DNA of 64,000 bases from Escherichia coli. Its GTDB lineage: Bacteria; Pseudomonadota; Gammaproteobacteria; Enterobacterales; Enterobacteriaceae. The stretch lies in the NCBI RefSeq assembly GCF_001677475.2, contig NZ_CP015229.1, one strand, 5' to 3'. Below, piece by piece: positions 2,920 to 64,000 of this stretch. The notes under the pieces were generated by a model. The model did not search any database, was not told the origin of the DNA, and saw only the letters and a program-made list of their open reading frames with translations. The position numbers were made by a program, and so were the translations under genes. Position 1 is the stretch's first letter. Every line of letters begins with the position of its first letter.

Positions 2920-3707
2920 TGATGGAATTCATCCTCAGTCATGTAGAAAAGGGCGTGATGACACTAACGCTCAACCGCCCGGAACGCCTGAACAGTTTTA
3001 ATGATGAGATGCACGCACAACTGGCAGAGTGCCTGAAACAGGTCGAGCGCGACGACACTATCCGTTGCCTGTTAATTACAGGTGCCGGGCGCGGATTTTG
3101 TGCTGGTCAGGATCTTAACGATCGTAACGTTGATCCCACTGGCCCCGCACCGGATTTAGGTATGTCAGTGGAGCGTTTCTATAACCCACTGGTACGTCGC
3201 CTGGCAAAACTGCCAAAACCAGTGATCTGTGCAGTCAATGGCGTGGCGGCAGGAGCTGGCGCAACACTGGCACTGGGGTGCGATATCGTTATTGCTGCCC
3301 GTTCAGCAAAATTCGTCATGGCGTTTAGTAAGTTAGGTTTGGTACCCGATTGCGGTGGTACCTGGTTACTGCCACGCGTTGCCGGACGAGCGCGCGCCCT
3401 GGGGCTGGCACTGCTGGGGAATCAACTGAGTGCTGAACAGGCGCACGAATGGGGGATGATCTGGCAGGTTGTTGATGATGAAACGCTGGCAGATACCGCG
3501 CAACAGCTGGCACGTCATCTGGCGACACAACCGACATTTGGTCTTGGACTTATCAAGCAAGCGATAAATAGCTCTGAAACCAATACGCTCGATACGCAAC
3601 TGGATCTGGAACGCGACTATCAGCGACTTGCCGGACGGAGCGCAGATTATCGTGAAGGCGTCAGTGCATTCCTGGCTAAACGCTCACCGCAGTTCACGGG
3701 GAAATAG
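2919..3707 (+). CDS. paaG: 1,2-epoxyphenylacetyl-CoA isomerase (crotonase family)
   Basis: Track ORF, 262 aa; crotonase-like; start overlaps paaF stop. Confidence 0.9.
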   Translation: MMEFILSHVEKGVMTLTLNRPERLNSFNDEMHAQLAECLKQVERDDTIRCLLITGAGRGFCAGQDLNDRNVDPTGPAPDLGMSVERFYNPLVRRLAKLPKPVICAVNGVAAGAGATLALGCDIVIAARSAKFVMAFSKLGLVPDCGGTWLLPRVAGRARALGLALLGNQLSAEQAHEWGMIWQVVDDETLADTAQQLARHLATQPTFGLGLIKQAINSSETNTLDTQLDLERDYQRLAGRSADYREGVSAFLAKRSPQFTGK

Positions 3708-3708
3708 C

Positions 3709-5136
3709 ATGATGATAAATGTGCAAACTGTGGCAGTGATTGGGAGCGGCACCATGGGGGCAGGCATTGCTGAAGTTGCCGCCAGTCATGGACGTCAGGT
3801 TTTACTGTATGACATTTCTGCTGAAGCGCTGACCCGCGCAATAGACGGAATACACGCGCGGCTGAATTCACGCGTGAAGCGGGGAAAACTGACCGCTGAA
3901 ACCTGTGAACGCACATTGAAACGCCTGATCCCGGTGACCGATATTCACGCGCTGGCAGCAGCGGACCTGGTCATTGAAGCGGCGTCTGAGCGTCTGGACG
4001 TCAAAAAAGCGCTCTTTGCACAGCTGGCGGAAGTTTGCCCGCCACAAACGCTATTGACCACTAACACTTCGTCAATCTCTATAACCGCGATTGCTGCGGA
4101 GGTGAAGAATCCTGAACGTGTTGCGGGGCTGCATTTTTTTAACCCGGCACCGGTGATGAAGTTGGTGGAGGTGGTCAGTGGGCTGGCAACGGCGGCGGAA
4201 GTTGTCGAGCAGCTGTGTGAACTGACATTGAGTTGGGGTAAGCAGCCGGTGCGCTGTCATTCGACTCCTGGATTTATCGTTAACCGTGTAGCGCGTCCTT
4301 ATTATTCCGAGGCCTGGCGGGCACTGGAAGAGCAGGTTGCTGCACCAGAAGTGATTGACGCTGCGCTACGCGATGGCGCTGGTTTCCCGATGGGGCCGCT
4401 GGAATTAACCGATCTGATTGGTCAGGACGTCAATTTTGCTGTCACCTGTTCGGTGTTTAACGCTTTCTGGCAGGAGCGTCGTTTTTTACCTTCGCTGGTG
4501 CAACAGGAACTGGTGATTGGTGGACGGTTGGGCAAAAAAAGTGGGCTTGGCGTGTACGACTGGCGCGCGGAACGTGAGGCAGTTGTTGGCCTGGAAGCGG
4601 TTAGCGACAGTTTTAGCCCAATGAAAGTAGAAAATAAAAGTGACGGTGTCACGGAAATTGACGATGTTTTATTGATTGAGACACAAGGCGAGACGGCACA
4701 GGCGCTGGCAACACGACTGGCGCGCCCGGTGGTAGTGATCGACAAAATGGCGGGCAAGGTGGTGACCATTGCTGCTGCAGCGGTGAACCCGGACTCAGCG
4801 ACCCGCAAGGCCATTTATTACCTGCAACAGCAGGGCAAAACAGTGCTGCAAATTGCAGATTACCCAGGAATGCTGATTTGGCGAACGGTAGCAATGATCA
4901 TCAATGAAGCCCTCGATGCGCTGCAAAAAGGCGTGGCTTCTGAGCAGGATATCGATACCGCCATGCGTCTTGGGGTGAATTATCCATATGGCCCGCTTGC
5001 ATGGGGAGCGCAACTTGGCTGGCAGCGAATATTAAGGCTCCTGGAAAACCTACAACATCACTATGGCGAAGAACGCTATCGCCCATGTTCATTGCTGCGC
5101 CAACGGGCGCTTCTGGAGAGCGGTTATGAGTCATAA
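3709..5136 (+). CDS. paaH: 3-hydroxyadipyl-CoA dehydrogenase (475 aa)
   Basis: Start at ATG 3709 immediately after paaG stop; N-terminal Rossmann motif VIGSGTMGAGIA; track ORF 3628..5136 includes an upstream extension that overlaps paaG. Confidence 0.9.
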   Translation: MMINVQTVAVIGSGTMGAGIAEVAASHGRQVLLYDISAEALTRAIDGIHARLNSRVKRGKLTAETCERTLKRLIPVTDIHALAAADLVIEAASERLDVKKALFAQLAEVCPPQTLLTTNTSSISITAIAAEVKNPERVAGLHFFNPAPVMKLVEVVSGLATAAEVVEQLCELTLSWGKQPVRCHSTPGFIVNRVARPYYSEAWRALEEQVAAPEVIDAALRDGAGFPMGPLELTDLIGQDVNFAVTCSVFNAFWQERRFLPSLVQQELVIGGRLGKKSGLGVYDWRAEREAVVGLEAVSDSFSPMKVENKSDGVTEIDDVLLIETQGETAQALATRLARPVVVIDKMAGKVVTIAAAAVNPDSATRKAIYYLQQQGKTVLQIADYPGMLIWRTVAMIINEALDALQKGVASEQDIDTAMRLGVNYPYGPLAWGAQLGWQRILRLLENLQHHYGEERYRPCSLLRQRALLESGYES

Positions 5137-27166: not shown

Positions 27167-27231
27167 AAAGAAAACGCCTGTACTAAAACCGACCCGTGGT
27201 ACAGGCGAAGAATACGGGCCTACATCGGAAG
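27167..27231 (-). ncRNA. rydC: Small regulatory RNA RydC
   Basis: Minus-strand sequence CTTCCGATGTAGGCCCGTATTCTTCGCCTGTACCACGGGTCGGTTTTAGTACAGGCGTTTTCTTT matches remembered RydC; in the cybB-ydcA intergenic region; terminator hairpin plus U-tract. Confidence 0.75.
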
Positions 27232-27646: not shown

Positions 27647-27843
<197 letters not shown>

Positions 27844-27854
<11 letters not shown>

Positions 27855-27900
27855 TCGTTGGCCTCGGTTGATAGAAATATCGGTCGGGGCCTTCGTCTTT
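27844..27900 (+). ncRNA. sokB: Predicted SokB antisense RNA (antitoxin of hokB); boundaries approximate
   Basis: Plus-strand promoter-like TTGCCG (27808-27813), 17-bp spacer, TAAGAT (27831-27836) inside mokB, transcribing antisense across the mokB start; imperfect hairpin then U-rich tract near 27859-27900. Confidence 0.4.
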
Positions 27901-28128
27901 CTGATTCCCGGTTAGCCTGAAAACAGAAAGTCTCAGGCACCCGTGAGCATCCTATGTGGTTTCCTTAGGGACGAAAATAATCACCTGACGAAATTGCGTG
28001 CTGTTTTCCAGAATTTTTCGTTATTCGGTTTAGCCAGTTTAATCATTCGTTACTCTCTTCATTCCAATGGCATTAATCTTCTCTGCAATAATTGTTGTAA
28101 AAATGTGACGCAAAGAGGTTTTTGGTCG

Positions 28129-60882: not shown

Positions 60883-61013
60883 ATGTCATTAAGGAGAATG
60901 ACATCTGGTGAATTAACATTGGCCAGATCGATTTTTGAGAATACAATTGATTATAGCAAGGTATGGATCCACAATGAAAAATATTTGCCTGGTCAAGGGG
61001 AAAGAACAGCGAT
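60883..61013 (+). pseudogene. 5' fragment of a host ORF interrupted by the prophage insertion
   Basis: ATG 60883 with GGAAGGA RBS; MSLRRMTSGELTLARSIFENTIDYSKVWIHNEKYLPGQGERTAI then reads straight into the Mu-type end at 61014 (track ORF 60844..61083 is the chimera). Confidence 0.4.
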
Positions 61014-61190
61014 TGTATTGATTCACTTGAAGTACGAAAAAAACCGGGAGGACATTGGATTATTCGGGATTTGGCGGGATTAGATTTAGTGGGGCTTGCA
61101 AGCCTGTAGGACAGATTTTAGCCGTTACATCTTGAAACGCGAAAGATTGTTGGAAACAGCTTTTGATTCATTAAAGACACGAAAAGCAAT
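61014..61190 (+). repeat. Prophage attL with transposase end-binding sites L1, L2 and L3
   Basis: L1 about 61019-61040 (TGATTCACTTGAAGTACGAAAA), L2 about 61128-61147 (CTTGAAACGCGAAAGA), L3 about 61164-61186 (TGATTCATTAAAGACACGAAAAG); terminal 5'-TG. Confidence 0.8.
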
Positions 61191-61352
61191 TACTTCACGC
61201 ATCATTTCAAGTACAGCTTCAAAAATGCTTCAAAAACGGTAACAACCAGGCTTTCGGCAAGTGATGTGTGTCAAAAACAATCATCACTGTTTGGGTATCT
61301 TACATATGTAATTACCTAGAGTGAAGTTTATGTCTTAGCTATTACCTGGTTG

Positions 61353-61877
61353 TTATACAGCTTTCTTTACATCGTTTTCTCTTACAGGGAAATTATGTTC
61401 TTTGCCTTCATACTGAGACAAAATCTCTCTCACTTTTTCAGGTGGTAATGCCTGAAGAGTTTGCAGGGTTTTCTGTTGATCCACAGTAATCCCTAATGCC
61501 TCTAATGCCTTATCTTTACTGACAATTGTAGGCATAAGTCCTTTAATCCCTGCTACACGAATGATCTCCACAGCTGCGGCCTGCTCATCTGGTGTTAAGA
61601 AGCTCATTGCATAAATTAGCCTCTCATCAACTGTATGGGCGATTGATGTATGCACTGGTTTATCAGAAAGTGAGGCTCCTTTAATGGCCCTACGTGTTTC
61701 TTCTGGCAGACTGTTGATGTGATACTCATAAGCGACACCTTTCCCACCGTGACGCTGACGTTTTACCCAATCTTCCGCCACAGCTTTCCTGGTAATGTTA
61801 GTCGCCAACTTTGGTACACCAGGCATCCCTTCCAGCTCTTTCGCATTAAACCATTCTTTGATTTCAAAAGACATCAT
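61353..61877 (-). CDS. c: Mu-type lysogeny repressor (174 aa)
   Basis: Track ORF; C-terminus ...NDVKKAV resembles Mu repressor ...QEVKKAV; N-terminal region resembles the transposase N-terminus; leftward orientation as in Mu. Confidence 0.85.
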   Translation of the reverse strand: MMSFEIKEWFNAKELEGMPGVPKLATNITRKAVAEDWVKRQRHGGKGVAYEYHINSLPEETRRAIKGASLSDKPVHTSIAHTVDERLIYAMSFLTPDEQAAAVEIIRVAGIKGLMPTIVSKDKALEALGITVDQQKTLQTLQALPPEKVREILSQYEGKEHNFPVRENDVKKAV

Positions 61878-62057
61878 TTAAAATCCTAGCGATTTCAATA
61901 GAGACAAAATAAATTCATATAAAAATCATGCCGTTATATGAAATCATGGTAAATACTTTCAAATCTCTATTGATTTGAAAATGATTCCACACTACATTGC
62001 ACGATATGCCGTGAGCTACTTTATAGCGTAGCTCACGGGGGAATCTGAAAGGATTAC
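61878..62057. promoter_or_regulatory. Prophage early control region (operators, divergent promoters, transposition enhancer) by position
   Basis: Intergenic AT-rich region between divergent repressor and ner; individual operators not resolved by eye. Confidence 0.5.
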
Positions 62058-62062
62058 ATGAA

Positions 62063-62284
62063 ATGCATATGAATAAAAGAACTAACCGCCAAGATTGGCA
62101 CAGAGCTGACATCGTTGCAGAGCTACGAAAACGCAATATGTCACTAGCTGAATTGGGAAGATCTAATCATCTTTCGTCTTCAACATTAAAAAATGCTTTG
62201 GATAAGAGATATCCGAAAGCGGAGAAAATCATTGCAGATGCACTGGGAATGACACCGCAAGATATTTGGCCGTCTCGATACTAG
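62063..62284 (+). CDS. ner: Ner-like DNA-binding regulator of early transcription (73 aa)
   Basis: Track ORF; [33 protein letters not shown]... resembles Mu Ner (...DWHRADVIAGLKKRKLSLSALSR...); AAGGA RBS. Confidence 0.85.
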
Positions 62285-62291
62285 GTGCGCT

Positions 62292-64000
62292 ATGAAAGAA
62301 TGGTATACAGCAAAAGAGTTGCTCGGTTTGGCAGGTTTACCAAAGCAAGCCACTAACATTACACGTAAGGCACAAAGAGAAGGCTGGGAGTTCAGGCAGG
62401 TTGCAGGGACTAAAGGTGTATCATTTGAATTCAATATCAAATCATTCCCTGTCGCATTACGTGCTGAAATTCTGTTGCAACAAGGGAGAATTGAAACAAG
62501 CCAGGGGTATTTTGAAATCGCCCGCCCCACGCTGGAAGCCCACGATTACGATCGCGGGGCACTGTGGAGCAAATGGGATAAAGCCAGCGATTCCCAGCGC
62601 AGACTTGCTGAAAAATGGTTGCCTGCAGTTCAGGCCGCAGACGAAATGCTGAACCAGGGGATTTCAACAAAAACGGCTTTTGCGACCGTTGCAGGACATT
62701 ACCAGGTCAGCGCATCCACTTTGCGAGACAAGTATTACCAGGTACAGAAGTTTGCGAAGCCTGACTGGGCGGCTGCACTTGTTGATGGACGTGGTGCATC
62801 TCGTCGCAATGTTCACAAAAGTGAATTTGACGAGGATGCCTGGCAGTTTCTGATTGCAGATTATCTGCGACCGGAAAAACCCGCCTTCCGCAAATGTTAT
62901 GAGCGTCTGGAACTGGCAGCCCGCGAGCATGGCTGGAGTATTCCCTCCCGTGCCACGGCCTTTCGCCGGATTCAGCAACTGGACGAGGCAATGGTTGTTG
63001 CCTGTCGTGAAGGTGAACATGCACTGATGCATCTGATACCGGCACAGCAGCGAACTGTGGAACACCTGGACGCCATGCAGTGGATCAACGGCGACGGTTA
63101 TCTGCATAACGTCTTTGTACGCTGGTTTAACGGTGATGTGATCCGCCCGAAAACATGGTTCTGGCAGGATGTGAAAACCCGAAAAATTCTGGGCTGGCGC
63201 TGCGATGTGAGCGAGAACATTGATTCAATTCGCCTCTCGTTCATGGATGTGGTGACACGCTACGGCATCCCGGAAGATTTTCACATCACCATTGATAACA
63301 CCCGTGGGGCAGCGAATAAATGGCTGACGGGGGGCGCGCCCAATCGTTACCGCTTTAAGGTGAAAGAGGACGATCCAAAGGGACTGTTTTTACTGATGGG
63401 CGCGAAAATGCACTGGACAAGCGTTGTTGCCGGTAAAGGCTGGGGCCAGGCAAAACCTGTTGAACGTGCTTTCGGTGTTGGTGGGCTTGAGGAATACGTT
63501 GATAAGCATCCGGCACTGGCTGGCGCATATACGGGGCCAAATCCGCAGGCAAAACCTGATAACTATGGCGACCGTGCTGTTGATGCAGAGCTGTTTCTGA
63601 AAACCCTTGCTGAAGGTGTGGCGATGTTCAATGCCAGAACAGGCCGTGAAACAGAAATGTGCGGGGGCAAACTCTCGTTTGATGATGTTTTCGAGCGTGA
63701 ATACGCCAGAACGATTGTGCGTAAGCCAACCGAAGAACAAAAACGGATGCTGTTACTGCCTGCCGAAGCGGTGAACGTTTCACGCAAAGGCGAGTTTACG
63801 CTTAAAGTTGGCGGCTCCCTTAAAGGCGCGAAAAACGTTTATTACAACATGGCGTTAATGAATGCAGGCGTGAAAAAAGTTGTGGTCAGGTTTGATCCGC
63901 AGCAGCTACACAGCACAGTTTATTGCTACACCCTGGACGGTCGGTTTATCTGTGAAGCGGAATGTCTGGCACCTGTTGCATTTAATGATGCTGCGGCAGG
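62292..64000 (+). CDS. A: MuA-type DDE transposase, N-terminal ~569 codons (3' end outside window)
   Basis: Not in ORF track because there is no stop before the window end; hand translation [32 protein letters not shown]... with DDE residues at codons 268 (INGDGY), 335 (ITIDNTRG) and 391 (PVERAF). Confidence 0.9.

Follow-up and report, generated by a model that had tools for sequence, protein, structure and literature searches.

A D108-type immunity module at the predicted left end of a Mu-family prophage in Escherichia coli

Features at the locus

The window, which is the whole 64,000-nucleotide stretch of DNA that was analysed (assembly GCF_001677475.2, contig NZ_CP015229.1), ends in phage-related sequence in which a leftward repressor gene, c, is separated by a short control region from two rightward genes, ner and the transposase gene A (Table 1). 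The reading frames of 174 and 73 amino acids named in the original prediction were both found as described. That prediction had placed the feature at 61353-62700, and all the elements it listed lie at the coordinates given; its right-hand limit, however, is an arbitrary point inside A; the module boundary lies at about 62480, and the element itself begins at 61014. The A reading frame begins at 62292 and is cut short at codon 569 by the end of the window.

Table 1. Features of the prophage left end and its junction with host DNA
Feature	Coordinates	Strand	Remarks
Host target pentamer GCGAT	61009..61013	.	Directly left of prophage end; candidate duplicated target site if right end intact
Phage left end (attL), begins TGTATTGATTCAC	61014..61185	+	Transposase end-binding sites L1, L2 and L3
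L1	61024-61040		No mismatches to consensus YMYNWRAARYRCGAAAR (D108 annotation)
L2	about 61129-61145		Placed by eye; 2 mismatches to consensus
L3	61169-61185		1 mismatch to consensus YMYNWRAARYRCGAAAR
Inverted repeat TAACAACCAGG / CCTGGTTGTTA around 94-nt hypervariable segment	61240..61355	-	Just 3' of c stop codon
Immunity repressor gene c, 174 aa, D108 type	61353..61877	-	98.3% identical to D108 c
Divergent c/ner control region, ~185 bp	61878..62062	.	96.9% identical to D108; ~40% to Mu, effectively unalignable
Perfect 11-bp inverted repeat CCGTGAGCTAC-N8-GTAGCTCACGG	62009..62038	.	Presumed D108-type Ner operator
ner, D108 type, 73 aa; Cro-like, negatively regulates early and repressor transcription	62063..62284	+	D108 match
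A codons 1-66, D108-type I-alpha winged-helix domain	62292..62489	+	Paralogous to c N-terminus
A body, codons 67-569: I-beta and I-gamma end-binding domains, DDE core, start of C-terminal domain	62490..64000	+	Cut by window end

The repressor has an N-terminal winged-helix DNA-binding domain at approximately residues 6-65, which is recognised as Pfam HTH_Tnp_Mu_1 (E = 7.5e-51) and whose sequence matches the PDB entries 1TNS, the I-alpha domain of MuA (E = 6.8e-8), and 1G4D, a Mu repressor domain (E = 5.9e-4); its C-terminus, ...VKKAV, is common to Mu c. Ner is recognised as HTH_35 (E = 1.4e-28); in the PDB its sequence matches EnrR (7F9H, E = 1.5e-22) as well as Mu Ner (1NEQ, E = 1.7e-18). The visible part of A contains HTH_Tnp_Mu_1 (E = 1.8e-40), HTH_Tnp_Mu_2, DDE_2 (E = 2.4e-136) and Mu-transpos_C. 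The HTH_Tnp_Mu_1 domain is thus present in both c and A, as it is in phage Mu.

Immediately beyond the c stop codon, a conserved stem with the arms TAACAACC...GGTTGTTA, of which 11 nt pair perfectly, encloses the hypervariable segment. These arms recur in D108, SfMu, Mu, PhiR68_1 and vB_YpM_3, and the 88-102 nt between them vary. On the c strand the region folds at -32.7 kcal/mol (z = -3.3), the stem being followed by CCGUUUUU, and it is a candidate for a terminator, or another structure, at the 3' end of the c transcript. Searching the prophage sequence against Rfam gave no RNA family.

Left end and insertion site

Host sequence matching uninterrupted E. coli alleles ends at 61013, and the match to D108 begins at the next base, 61014, where base 1 of the D108 record aligns and which is the phage left end and the start of the element. 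The intact host allele reads ...AACAGCGAT|AACCCC. A phage end with three transposase-binding sites therefore abuts host DNA exactly at phage base 1, as in a Mu-like prophage, and the first 99 bases of this end are 99% identical to D108 and 94% to Mu. Mu prefers target sites of the form N-Y-(G/C)-R-N, and we take the pentamer GCGAT to agree with that preference.

The insertion breaks a small gene encoding an HExxH protein that adjoins a vgrG, and the remainder of the interrupted gene, beyond the prophage, would begin AACCCCAAACGGGG. Loss of the HExxH gene beside vgrG could bear on the type VI secretion locus of this strain. The insertion site is new: the identical prophage/host junction was found in no complete E. 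coli genome. The host DNA itself reaches no more than 97.3% identity to complete E. coli genomes, which indicates a divergent Escherichia host.

The stretch might instead be a dead remnant, that is, a left-end fragment produced by a deletion or an assembly join, in which the immunity region no longer works. The end of the window inside A at codon 569 would fit such a fragment, as would the lack of the same junction in complete E. coli genomes. Unique insertion sites are, however, the rule for these prophages, and the left end lies at precisely D108 base 1 beside a pentamer that fits the Mu preference. Moreover, c, ner and A (over its 569 visible codons) are uninterrupted and differ from a plaque-forming phage by only 0-3 substitutions each. 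We consequently regard a dead remnant as very unlikely.

Relationship to D108 and Mu

Positions 61014-64000 are almost certainly the left end of a transposable prophage of the Mu family (genus Muvirus) with D108-type immunity, as judged from sequence comparison. Over all 2,987 bases, the identity to D108 DNA is 97.8%, with 66 substitutions and no insertions or deletions, and Mu_3F6 also matches over the full length, likewise at 97.8%. The records of D108 (GQ357916 / NC_013594) and Mu_3F6 (LR595867) have the gene order, gene lengths and coordinates from base 1 seen here; unlike these, the present copy is integrated as a prophage, and its chromosomal site is new. Nothing contradicts its identification as a D108-type Muvirus left end.

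The comparisons with D108 and Mu divide this sequence into two parts. The original prediction proposed a combination of D108-type immunity with a transposase body of the Mu type, and pairwise alignments to both phages gave exactly that. The segment comprising c, the operator region, ner and A codons 1-62 is 97-100% identical to D108, whereas its DNA is 40-52% identical to Mu; from about 62480 on, the sequence is about equally near Mu and D108, at 97-99%. In c, 171 of the 174 residues are shared with D108, 172 (98.9%) with Mu_3F6 and only 54 (31%) with Mu, and D108 and Mu_3F6 rank first in a tblastn search. The three changes relative to D108 c are Y50, A80 and D133; residue 50 is N in the D108 record and Y here and in four other D108-type copies. 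Ner is identical to that of D108 at 73/73 residues, compared with 35/71 (49%) for Mu. The first 62 residues of A are likewise those of D108 (62/62), with 25/62 (40%) shared with Mu. Beyond this domain the relationship to Mu is close, as had been predicted: residues 63-569 match D108 at 504/507 positions (99.4%) and Mu at 502/507 (99.0%), so that 566 of 569 A residues overall are those of D108.

An ordinary Mu prophage with Mu-type immunity, whose proteins had been wrongly judged to differ from those of Mu, would account for the transposase body and for the Mu-like first bases of the left end. Such a prophage is incompatible with the values for c, Ner and the A N-terminus given above and with a control region that cannot be aligned to Mu; in addition, no megablast match to Mu begins before window position 62480 (query base 1481), and the match is confined to the last 51% of the query. 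This reading is already refuted and retains practically no chance of being correct. In agreement with the original prediction, the alignments showed neither near-identity to Mu nor a lack of relationship to both phages. The immunity proteins and operators are not those of the Mu type.

We are similarly confident of a composition in which a D108-type module, consisting of c, operators, ner and approximately the first 65 residues of A, appears joined to a Mu-like transposase body. This mosaic is already known and has been described since 1986, and it is an ordinary feature of these phages; as far as the citation in PMC3820752 goes, it is the D108/Mu relationship published by Mizuuchi, Weisberg and Mizuuchi in that year. 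Phage Mu (AF083977; O1-O3 enhancer) has the same architecture, and the present prophage is nearly identical to it in the end sites and in the A protein from residue ~67 on. The Mu cassette, however, is heterologous, with a c of 196 aa compared with 174 aa here.

Two further phages place the module among its relatives. SfMu (KP010268) carries a cassette of the D108 family, with c 90% and Ner 98.6% identical to those described here and residues 1-62 of A 95% identical; its control region (76%) and attL-to-c segment (56%) mark it as a more diverged subtype. SfMu c and Ner were reported to be 89% and 98% identical to those of D108, and 24% and 47% to those of Mu (PMC4406740). PhiR68_1 (PV340575) represents a third Muvirus immunity type, which has the same cassette boundaries as here and a c that is only ~41% identical overall.

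Module boundary in the transposase gene

From these alignments the immunity cassette appears to end at A codons 63-66, where the I-alpha domain finishes, at what would be a recombination joint. Mu-specific differences form their last cluster at 62478-62490, which corresponds to those codons, and window position 62480 is where the megablast match begins for Mu, for the Yersinia Mu-like phages and for PhiR68_1 alike. The A body that follows is common to Mu, D108, SfMu and PhiR68_1, with DNA identities of 97-99% to all four. A junction with the Mu-like body at about residue 60-70, preceded by c, Ner and an A N-terminal domain of the D108 kind, is the arrangement that characterises D108-type phages.

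Within the A body, positions 63581-63997 differ from Mu at 5 sites and from D108 at 23. The prophage is not clonal with the laboratory phage D108: towards its 3' end, the visible part of A is nearer Mu. The same segment points to some exchange of A segments among Muvirus lineages, and might be taken to mean that the prophage is a recent new recombinant of a D108-type and a Mu-type phage, with a mosaic peculiar to this strain and distinct from the classical arrangement of D108. We consider this decidedly unlikely, given that the junction of c, operators, ner and A(1-62) is the same in D108, Mu_3F6, SfMu and 39 E. coli prophages. The difference between Mu and D108 in distal A amounts to a few per cent and consists mostly of silent changes, because A departs from the D108 protein at only 3 of its 569 visible residues; it resembles a population-level patchwork and not a new joining of modules.

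Control region and proposed mode of action

The control region carries six substitutions relative to D108, all within 61890-61977, and should hold the repressor operators together with the early and repressor promoters, by analogy with Mu. This operator/enhancer role is taken from PMC3362531 and from the legend to Figure 6 of PMC3820752, where the corresponding element of Mu is labelled 'O/E, operator/enhancer'. A promoter and terminator scan of 61014-62400 yielded one weak hit within c and no sigma-70 match at the scanner threshold in the control region. By eye, TTGATT (61970-61975) and TACATT (61993-61998), separated by a 17-base spacer just upstream of the Ner repeat, form an early-promoter candidate with 8/12 matches, which we do not claim. 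The strict IHF consensus WATCAANNNNTTR had no match in the control region, and no IHF site was assigned.

The inverted repeat CCGTGAGCTAC-N8-GTAGCTCACGG is the sole match to its pattern in the 64 kb when three mismatches are allowed, against 0.01 expected by chance. The repeat and its 8-bp spacer are identical in D108 and Mu_3F6; SfMu has the same arms and differs in the spacer only, and the repeat is absent from Mu. We take it to be the site known from the D108 Ner footprinting literature. An exact-pattern scan for this Ner-type repeat gave no matches in 100,044 species-representative genomes, and in IMG/VR the same pattern was found in three prophage contigs, which are 98.9%, 97.8% and 92.6% identical to the window sequence and lie at other insertion sites. 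A study of the D108 Ner-operator complex is listed as reference 21 of PMC10434027.

As had also been predicted, the repressor and transposase N-termini are related: BLASTP of c against A residues 1-120 gave 33/60 identities (E = 3e-20), far above chance. The 20-letter motif originally given as shared is not wholly common, since one position differs (AG in the transposase, PG in the repressor), and the common string has 19 letters. The recognition segment ATNITRKA occurs in both proteins, compared with AGVIYVA (A) and AGVHYRA (c) in Mu. Mizuuchi, Weisberg and Mizuuchi (1986; reference 52 of PMC3820752) state in their title that the two N-termini resemble each other in both D108 and Mu. For Mu, binding of the same operator/enhancer is the established explanation of the shared N-terminus, and subdomain I-alpha of MuA binds the transpositional enhancer, which lies at the operator, in the account given in PMC3362531 (its references 49 and 50).

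By analogy, the mechanism in this prophage would be that of Mu. The N-terminal winged helix of the repressor would bind operators in the control region and turn off the early promoter. The paralogous I-alpha domain of the transposase, having the same recognition segment, may bind the same DNA, which would then act as the transpositional enhancer, so the repressor could block both early transcription and transpososome assembly. Ner would bind the inverted repeat and lower transcription from both promoters once lytic growth begins. Repressor, operators and transposase N-terminus would travel together as a single exchangeable module, because all three must match one another.

Possible origin of the shared DNA-binding domain

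The pairing of c and A raises the question of how new Muvirus immunity specificities arise. In three types, the N-terminal domain of A is at least as near to its own repressor as to the orthologous domain in the A protein of another type (56% and 47% for D108, 66% across the domain and 47% for PhiR68_1, 41% and 41% for Mu). Such a pattern may suggest that the DNA-binding domain is re-copied between c and A of one genome by duplication or gene conversion, rather than that the two diverge slowly in parallel; this idea is speculative and, on balance, unlikely. Bootstrap support for the cognate pairing is uneven (0.86 for D108, 0.99 for PhiR68_1 and 0.38 for Mu), and we therefore do not present a closer relationship of cognate pairs than of orthologues as a firm result. 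Selection for a common operator specificity would produce the same pattern. A recent conversion between c and A was ruled out: the domain DNA is 59% identical and the longest common run is 11 bases, so any conversion must be old.

Occurrence in E. coli

Among the Mu-like prophages of 5,426 complete E. coli genomes, the D108 type is the commonest of three immunity types, being found in 39 genomes, compared with 25 for the Mu type, a count inflated by laboratory and W-derived strains, and 15 for the PhiR68_1 type, which was counted as full-length. Each of the 39 D108-type cassettes adjoins different host genes, as expected of a transposing phage. One genome, 22KM0354, carries a D108-type and a PhiR68_1-type cassette together, and this coexistence of heterologous cassettes gives indirect support to a possible heteroimmunity, in which a lysogen would resist D108 and stay sensitive to Mu. 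In related genomes, RefSeq labels the three genes 'MerR family transcriptional regulator', 'helix-turn-helix domain-containing protein' and 'transposase domain-containing protein'; these are c, ner and A, respectively. The value of the present analysis lies mainly in such correct annotation, with the last 3 kb of the window read as a Mu-family prophage bearing a D108 immunity module.

Left End of a Mu-Family Prophage

When window positions 61000-64000 were searched by megablast against 50,697 phage records, D108 (GQ357916) matched the entire query at 97.8% identity, with base 1 of its genome aligned to window position 61014, and Escherichia virus Mu_3F6 equaled it (whole query, 97.8%). SfMu covered 94% of the query at 92.2% identity; Mu, two Yersinia Mu-like phages, and PhiR68_1 matched only from query base 1481 (window position 62480) to the end, at 96.6-97.8%. 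From these matches between 61014 and the window end, the final 2,987 bases are identified, on sequence grounds, as the left end of a Mu-family prophage. The interval addressed by the original prediction falls within it. The phage left-end sequence TGTATTGATTCACTTGAAGTACGAAAAAAACCGG starts at 61014, upstream of the open reading frames (ORFs) for the immunity repressor (c), the Cro-like regulator (Ner), and the transposase (A). Inside the A gene, CCTTAAAGGCGCGAAAA at 63818-63834 has one mismatch to the MuA end-site consensus; this match is probably fortuitous, because chance alone would give about 0.8 matches of this kind over the window.

Features at the prophage left end (L1-L3, transposase end-binding sites)
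Feature	Position	Strand	Remarks
Interrupted host gene, start and interrupted part	60884-61013		
L1	61024-61040		0 mismatches to end-site consensus of D108 annotation
L2	about 61129-61145		Read by eye
L3	61169-61185		1 mismatch to end-site consensus of D108 annotation
c ORF	61353-61877	-	174 aa; ORF list
ner ORF	62063-62284	+	73 aa; ORF list
A ORF	62292-window end	+	Long; ATG at 62292; runs past window end; ORF list

D108-Type Immunity Cassette and Mu-Type Transposase Body

The window proteins were compared with those at the annotated coordinates of the D108, Mu, Mu_3F6, and SfMu records. The original prediction was that the repressor and Ner differ clearly from those of Mu, whereas the transposase past its N-terminal domain is close to MuA, as in a D108-type mosaic. 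This observation was confirmed, and its interpretation is supported by the near identity of c, Ner, and A residues 1-62 to D108 and by alignment of the c-ner control region. The final cluster of Mu-specific differences in the alignment lies at 62478-62490, i.e., A codons 63-66. The arrangement is already known: it corresponds to the relationship published for D108 and Mu, of which the window holds one more natural copy. The same D108-versus-Mu contrast was reported for SfMu, whose c shares 89% identity with D108 c versus 24% with Mu c, and whose Ner shares 98% with D108 Ner versus 47% with Mu Ner (PMC4406740).

Identity of the window sequence to reference phages (DNA values for D108 and Mu from the per-region mismatch table)
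Region	D108	Mu_3F6	SfMu	Mu
c protein (174 aa)	171/174	172/174	90%	54/174 (31%; Mu c, 196 aa)
Ner protein (73 aa)	73/73	73/73	72/73	35/71 (49%)
A residues 1-62	62/62	62/62	95%	25/62 (40%)
A residues 63-569	504/507	504/507	502/507	502/507
c DNA	98.9%			41.9%
c-ner control region DNA	96.9%			40.2%
ner DNA	100%			51.4%
A codons 1-62 DNA	100%			51.9%
A DNA from 62501 onward	94.5-97.8%		97.3-97.6%	97.3-98.8%

Across the 2,987 aligned bases, the window differs from D108 by 66 substitutions and 0 indels, four further entries in the difference list being alignment-end overhangs. Six of the 66 are in the control region, all within 61890-61977. Three amino-acid changes occur in c. At codon 50 (61728-61730), the GenBank D108 record has N50, and the window, Mu_3F6, and two IMG/VR prophages have Y50; we speculate that N50 may be a laboratory allele, e.g., a temperature-sensitive one. 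D133 was found only in the window among the copies compared. Within 63581-63997, there are 5 mismatches to Mu versus 23 to D108, a pattern showing swapping of small A-gene segments among Muvirus lineages, whatever their immunity type. Judging from these counts, the prophage is a D108-immunity Muvirus with a patchwork of its own, not the laboratory phage.

Shared Domains and Proposed Mechanism

A motif common to the N-termini of c and A had also been proposed. The similarity is real (33/60 identities with A residues 1-120, ungapped, E = 3e-20 by BLASTP), but the spelling given was slightly off, since at one place the transposase has AG and the repressor PG. By Pfam, both proteins carry HTH_Tnp_Mu_1 ("Mu DNA-binding domain"; E = 7.5e-51 in c and 1.8e-40 in A), A further carries HTH_Tnp_Mu_2 (I-gamma domain), DDE_2 (E = 2.4e-136), and Mu-transpos_C, and Ner is assigned to HTH_35. 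In sequence matches to known structures, the c N-terminus matched the I-alpha domain of MuA (1TNS, E = 6.8e-8) and, at E = 5.9e-4, the DNA-binding domain of the Mu repressor (1G4D), and Ner matched EnrR (7F9H) and Mu Ner (1NEQ). The segment ATNITRKA is common to the window c and A, with the Mu counterparts AGVHYRA and AGVIYVA; this sharing fits a DNA specificity that differs between phages and that c and A of a given phage have in common. Recent gene conversion between the c and A domains was ruled out, because their DNA is 59% identical and the longest common run is 11 bases. Bootstrap values for cognate c/A pairs being closer than A orthologues were uneven (0.86, 0.99, and 0.38).

In a passage of PMC3362531 referring to Harshey et al. 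1985 and Mizuuchi, Weisberg and Mizuuchi 1986, MuA subdomain I-alpha is described as having a winged helix-turn-helix fold and binding the transpositional enhancer. By analogy with Mu, the repressor would block the early promoter and also sit on the enhancer needed by the transposase, and Ner would lower the activity of both promoters from an inverted repeat at 62009-62038. Because repressor, operators, and transposase N-terminus must match one another, c, the operators, and the A N-terminus would form a single exchangeable cassette, its right joint lying where the I-alpha domain ends.

Inverted Repeats

The repeat at 62009-62038, within the control region, is perfect (CCGTGAGCTAC-N8-GTAGCTCACGG), and we take it to be the D108 Ner operator. 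It is the sole match in the window with ≤3 mismatches, 0.01 being expected by chance. D108 and Mu_3F6 carry an identical copy, and SfMu keeps the arms, whereas Mu lacks the repeat in the alignment. The repeat had 0 matches among the species-representative genomes of a 100,044-species set and was found in three IMG/VR contigs, each at another insertion site. A spectroscopic study of D108 Ner and a 61-bp operator appears as reference 21 of PMC10434027.

On the minus-strand transcript, perfect 11-nt arms TAACAACC...GGTTGTTA (TAACAACCAGG / CCTGGTTGTTA) at 61240-61250 and 61345-61355 flank a 94-nt segment just 3' to the stop codon of c. Both arms are kept in D108, SfMu, Mu, PhiR68_1, and vB_YpM_3, i.e., in all immunity types, and their interior (88-102 nt) is hypervariable across these types. 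The c-strand RNA of 61240-61355 folds at -32.7 kcal/mol (z = -3.3), with a U run after it. This repeat may be a terminator or stabilising 3' structure of c mRNA, or may mark the left boundary of the module.

Distribution and a Third Immunity Type

Among 5,426 complete E. coli genomes, 82 carry the Mu-type A body, 39 a full-length D108-type cassette, 25 the Mu-type cassette (many being K-12 or W derivatives), and 15 a full-length PhiR68_1-type cassette. Every D108-type copy adjoins different host genes, and E. coli 22KM0354 (NZ_CP151071.1) has D108-type and PhiR68_1-type cassettes in one strain. PhiR68_1 (phage bases 1-1480) has the same boundary inside A as the D108 type (match to the window from 62480), but its c is only about 41% identical to D108-type c; within PhiR68_1 itself, the N-termini of c and A share 66% identity. 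PhiR68_1 represents a third Muvirus immunity type.

Insertion Site and Host Chromosome

The host flank matches E. coli chromosomes as far as 61013 and no further, and the prophage-host junction was absent from all 5,426 complete E. coli genomes. In an uninterrupted allele (CP026755, gene 3384-3914 of the extracted locus), the insertion falls after the first 131 nt of a 531-nt gene that carries the annotation "type IV secretion protein Rhs" and encodes a 176-aa product with an HEMMH motif (zinc-peptidase-like); this gene sits between ansP and a type VI secretion vgrG. The target pentamer GCGAT adjoins the phage end on the left. The 25-kb host core left of the prophage (36000-60900, including pqqU, rlhA, ansP, patD, and ydcR) shares no more than 97.3% identity with any of the 5,426 genomes. 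Such a maximum is low for E. coli sensu stricto and suggests that the host belongs to a divergent or cryptic lineage of Escherichia. Elsewhere in the window, Rfam searches detected the sRNA RydC (90.5 bits, 27168-27231, minus strand) and sok antitoxin RNA (109.7 bits, 27791-27942, minus strand); the latter implies that a hok/sok locus is present on the chromosome.
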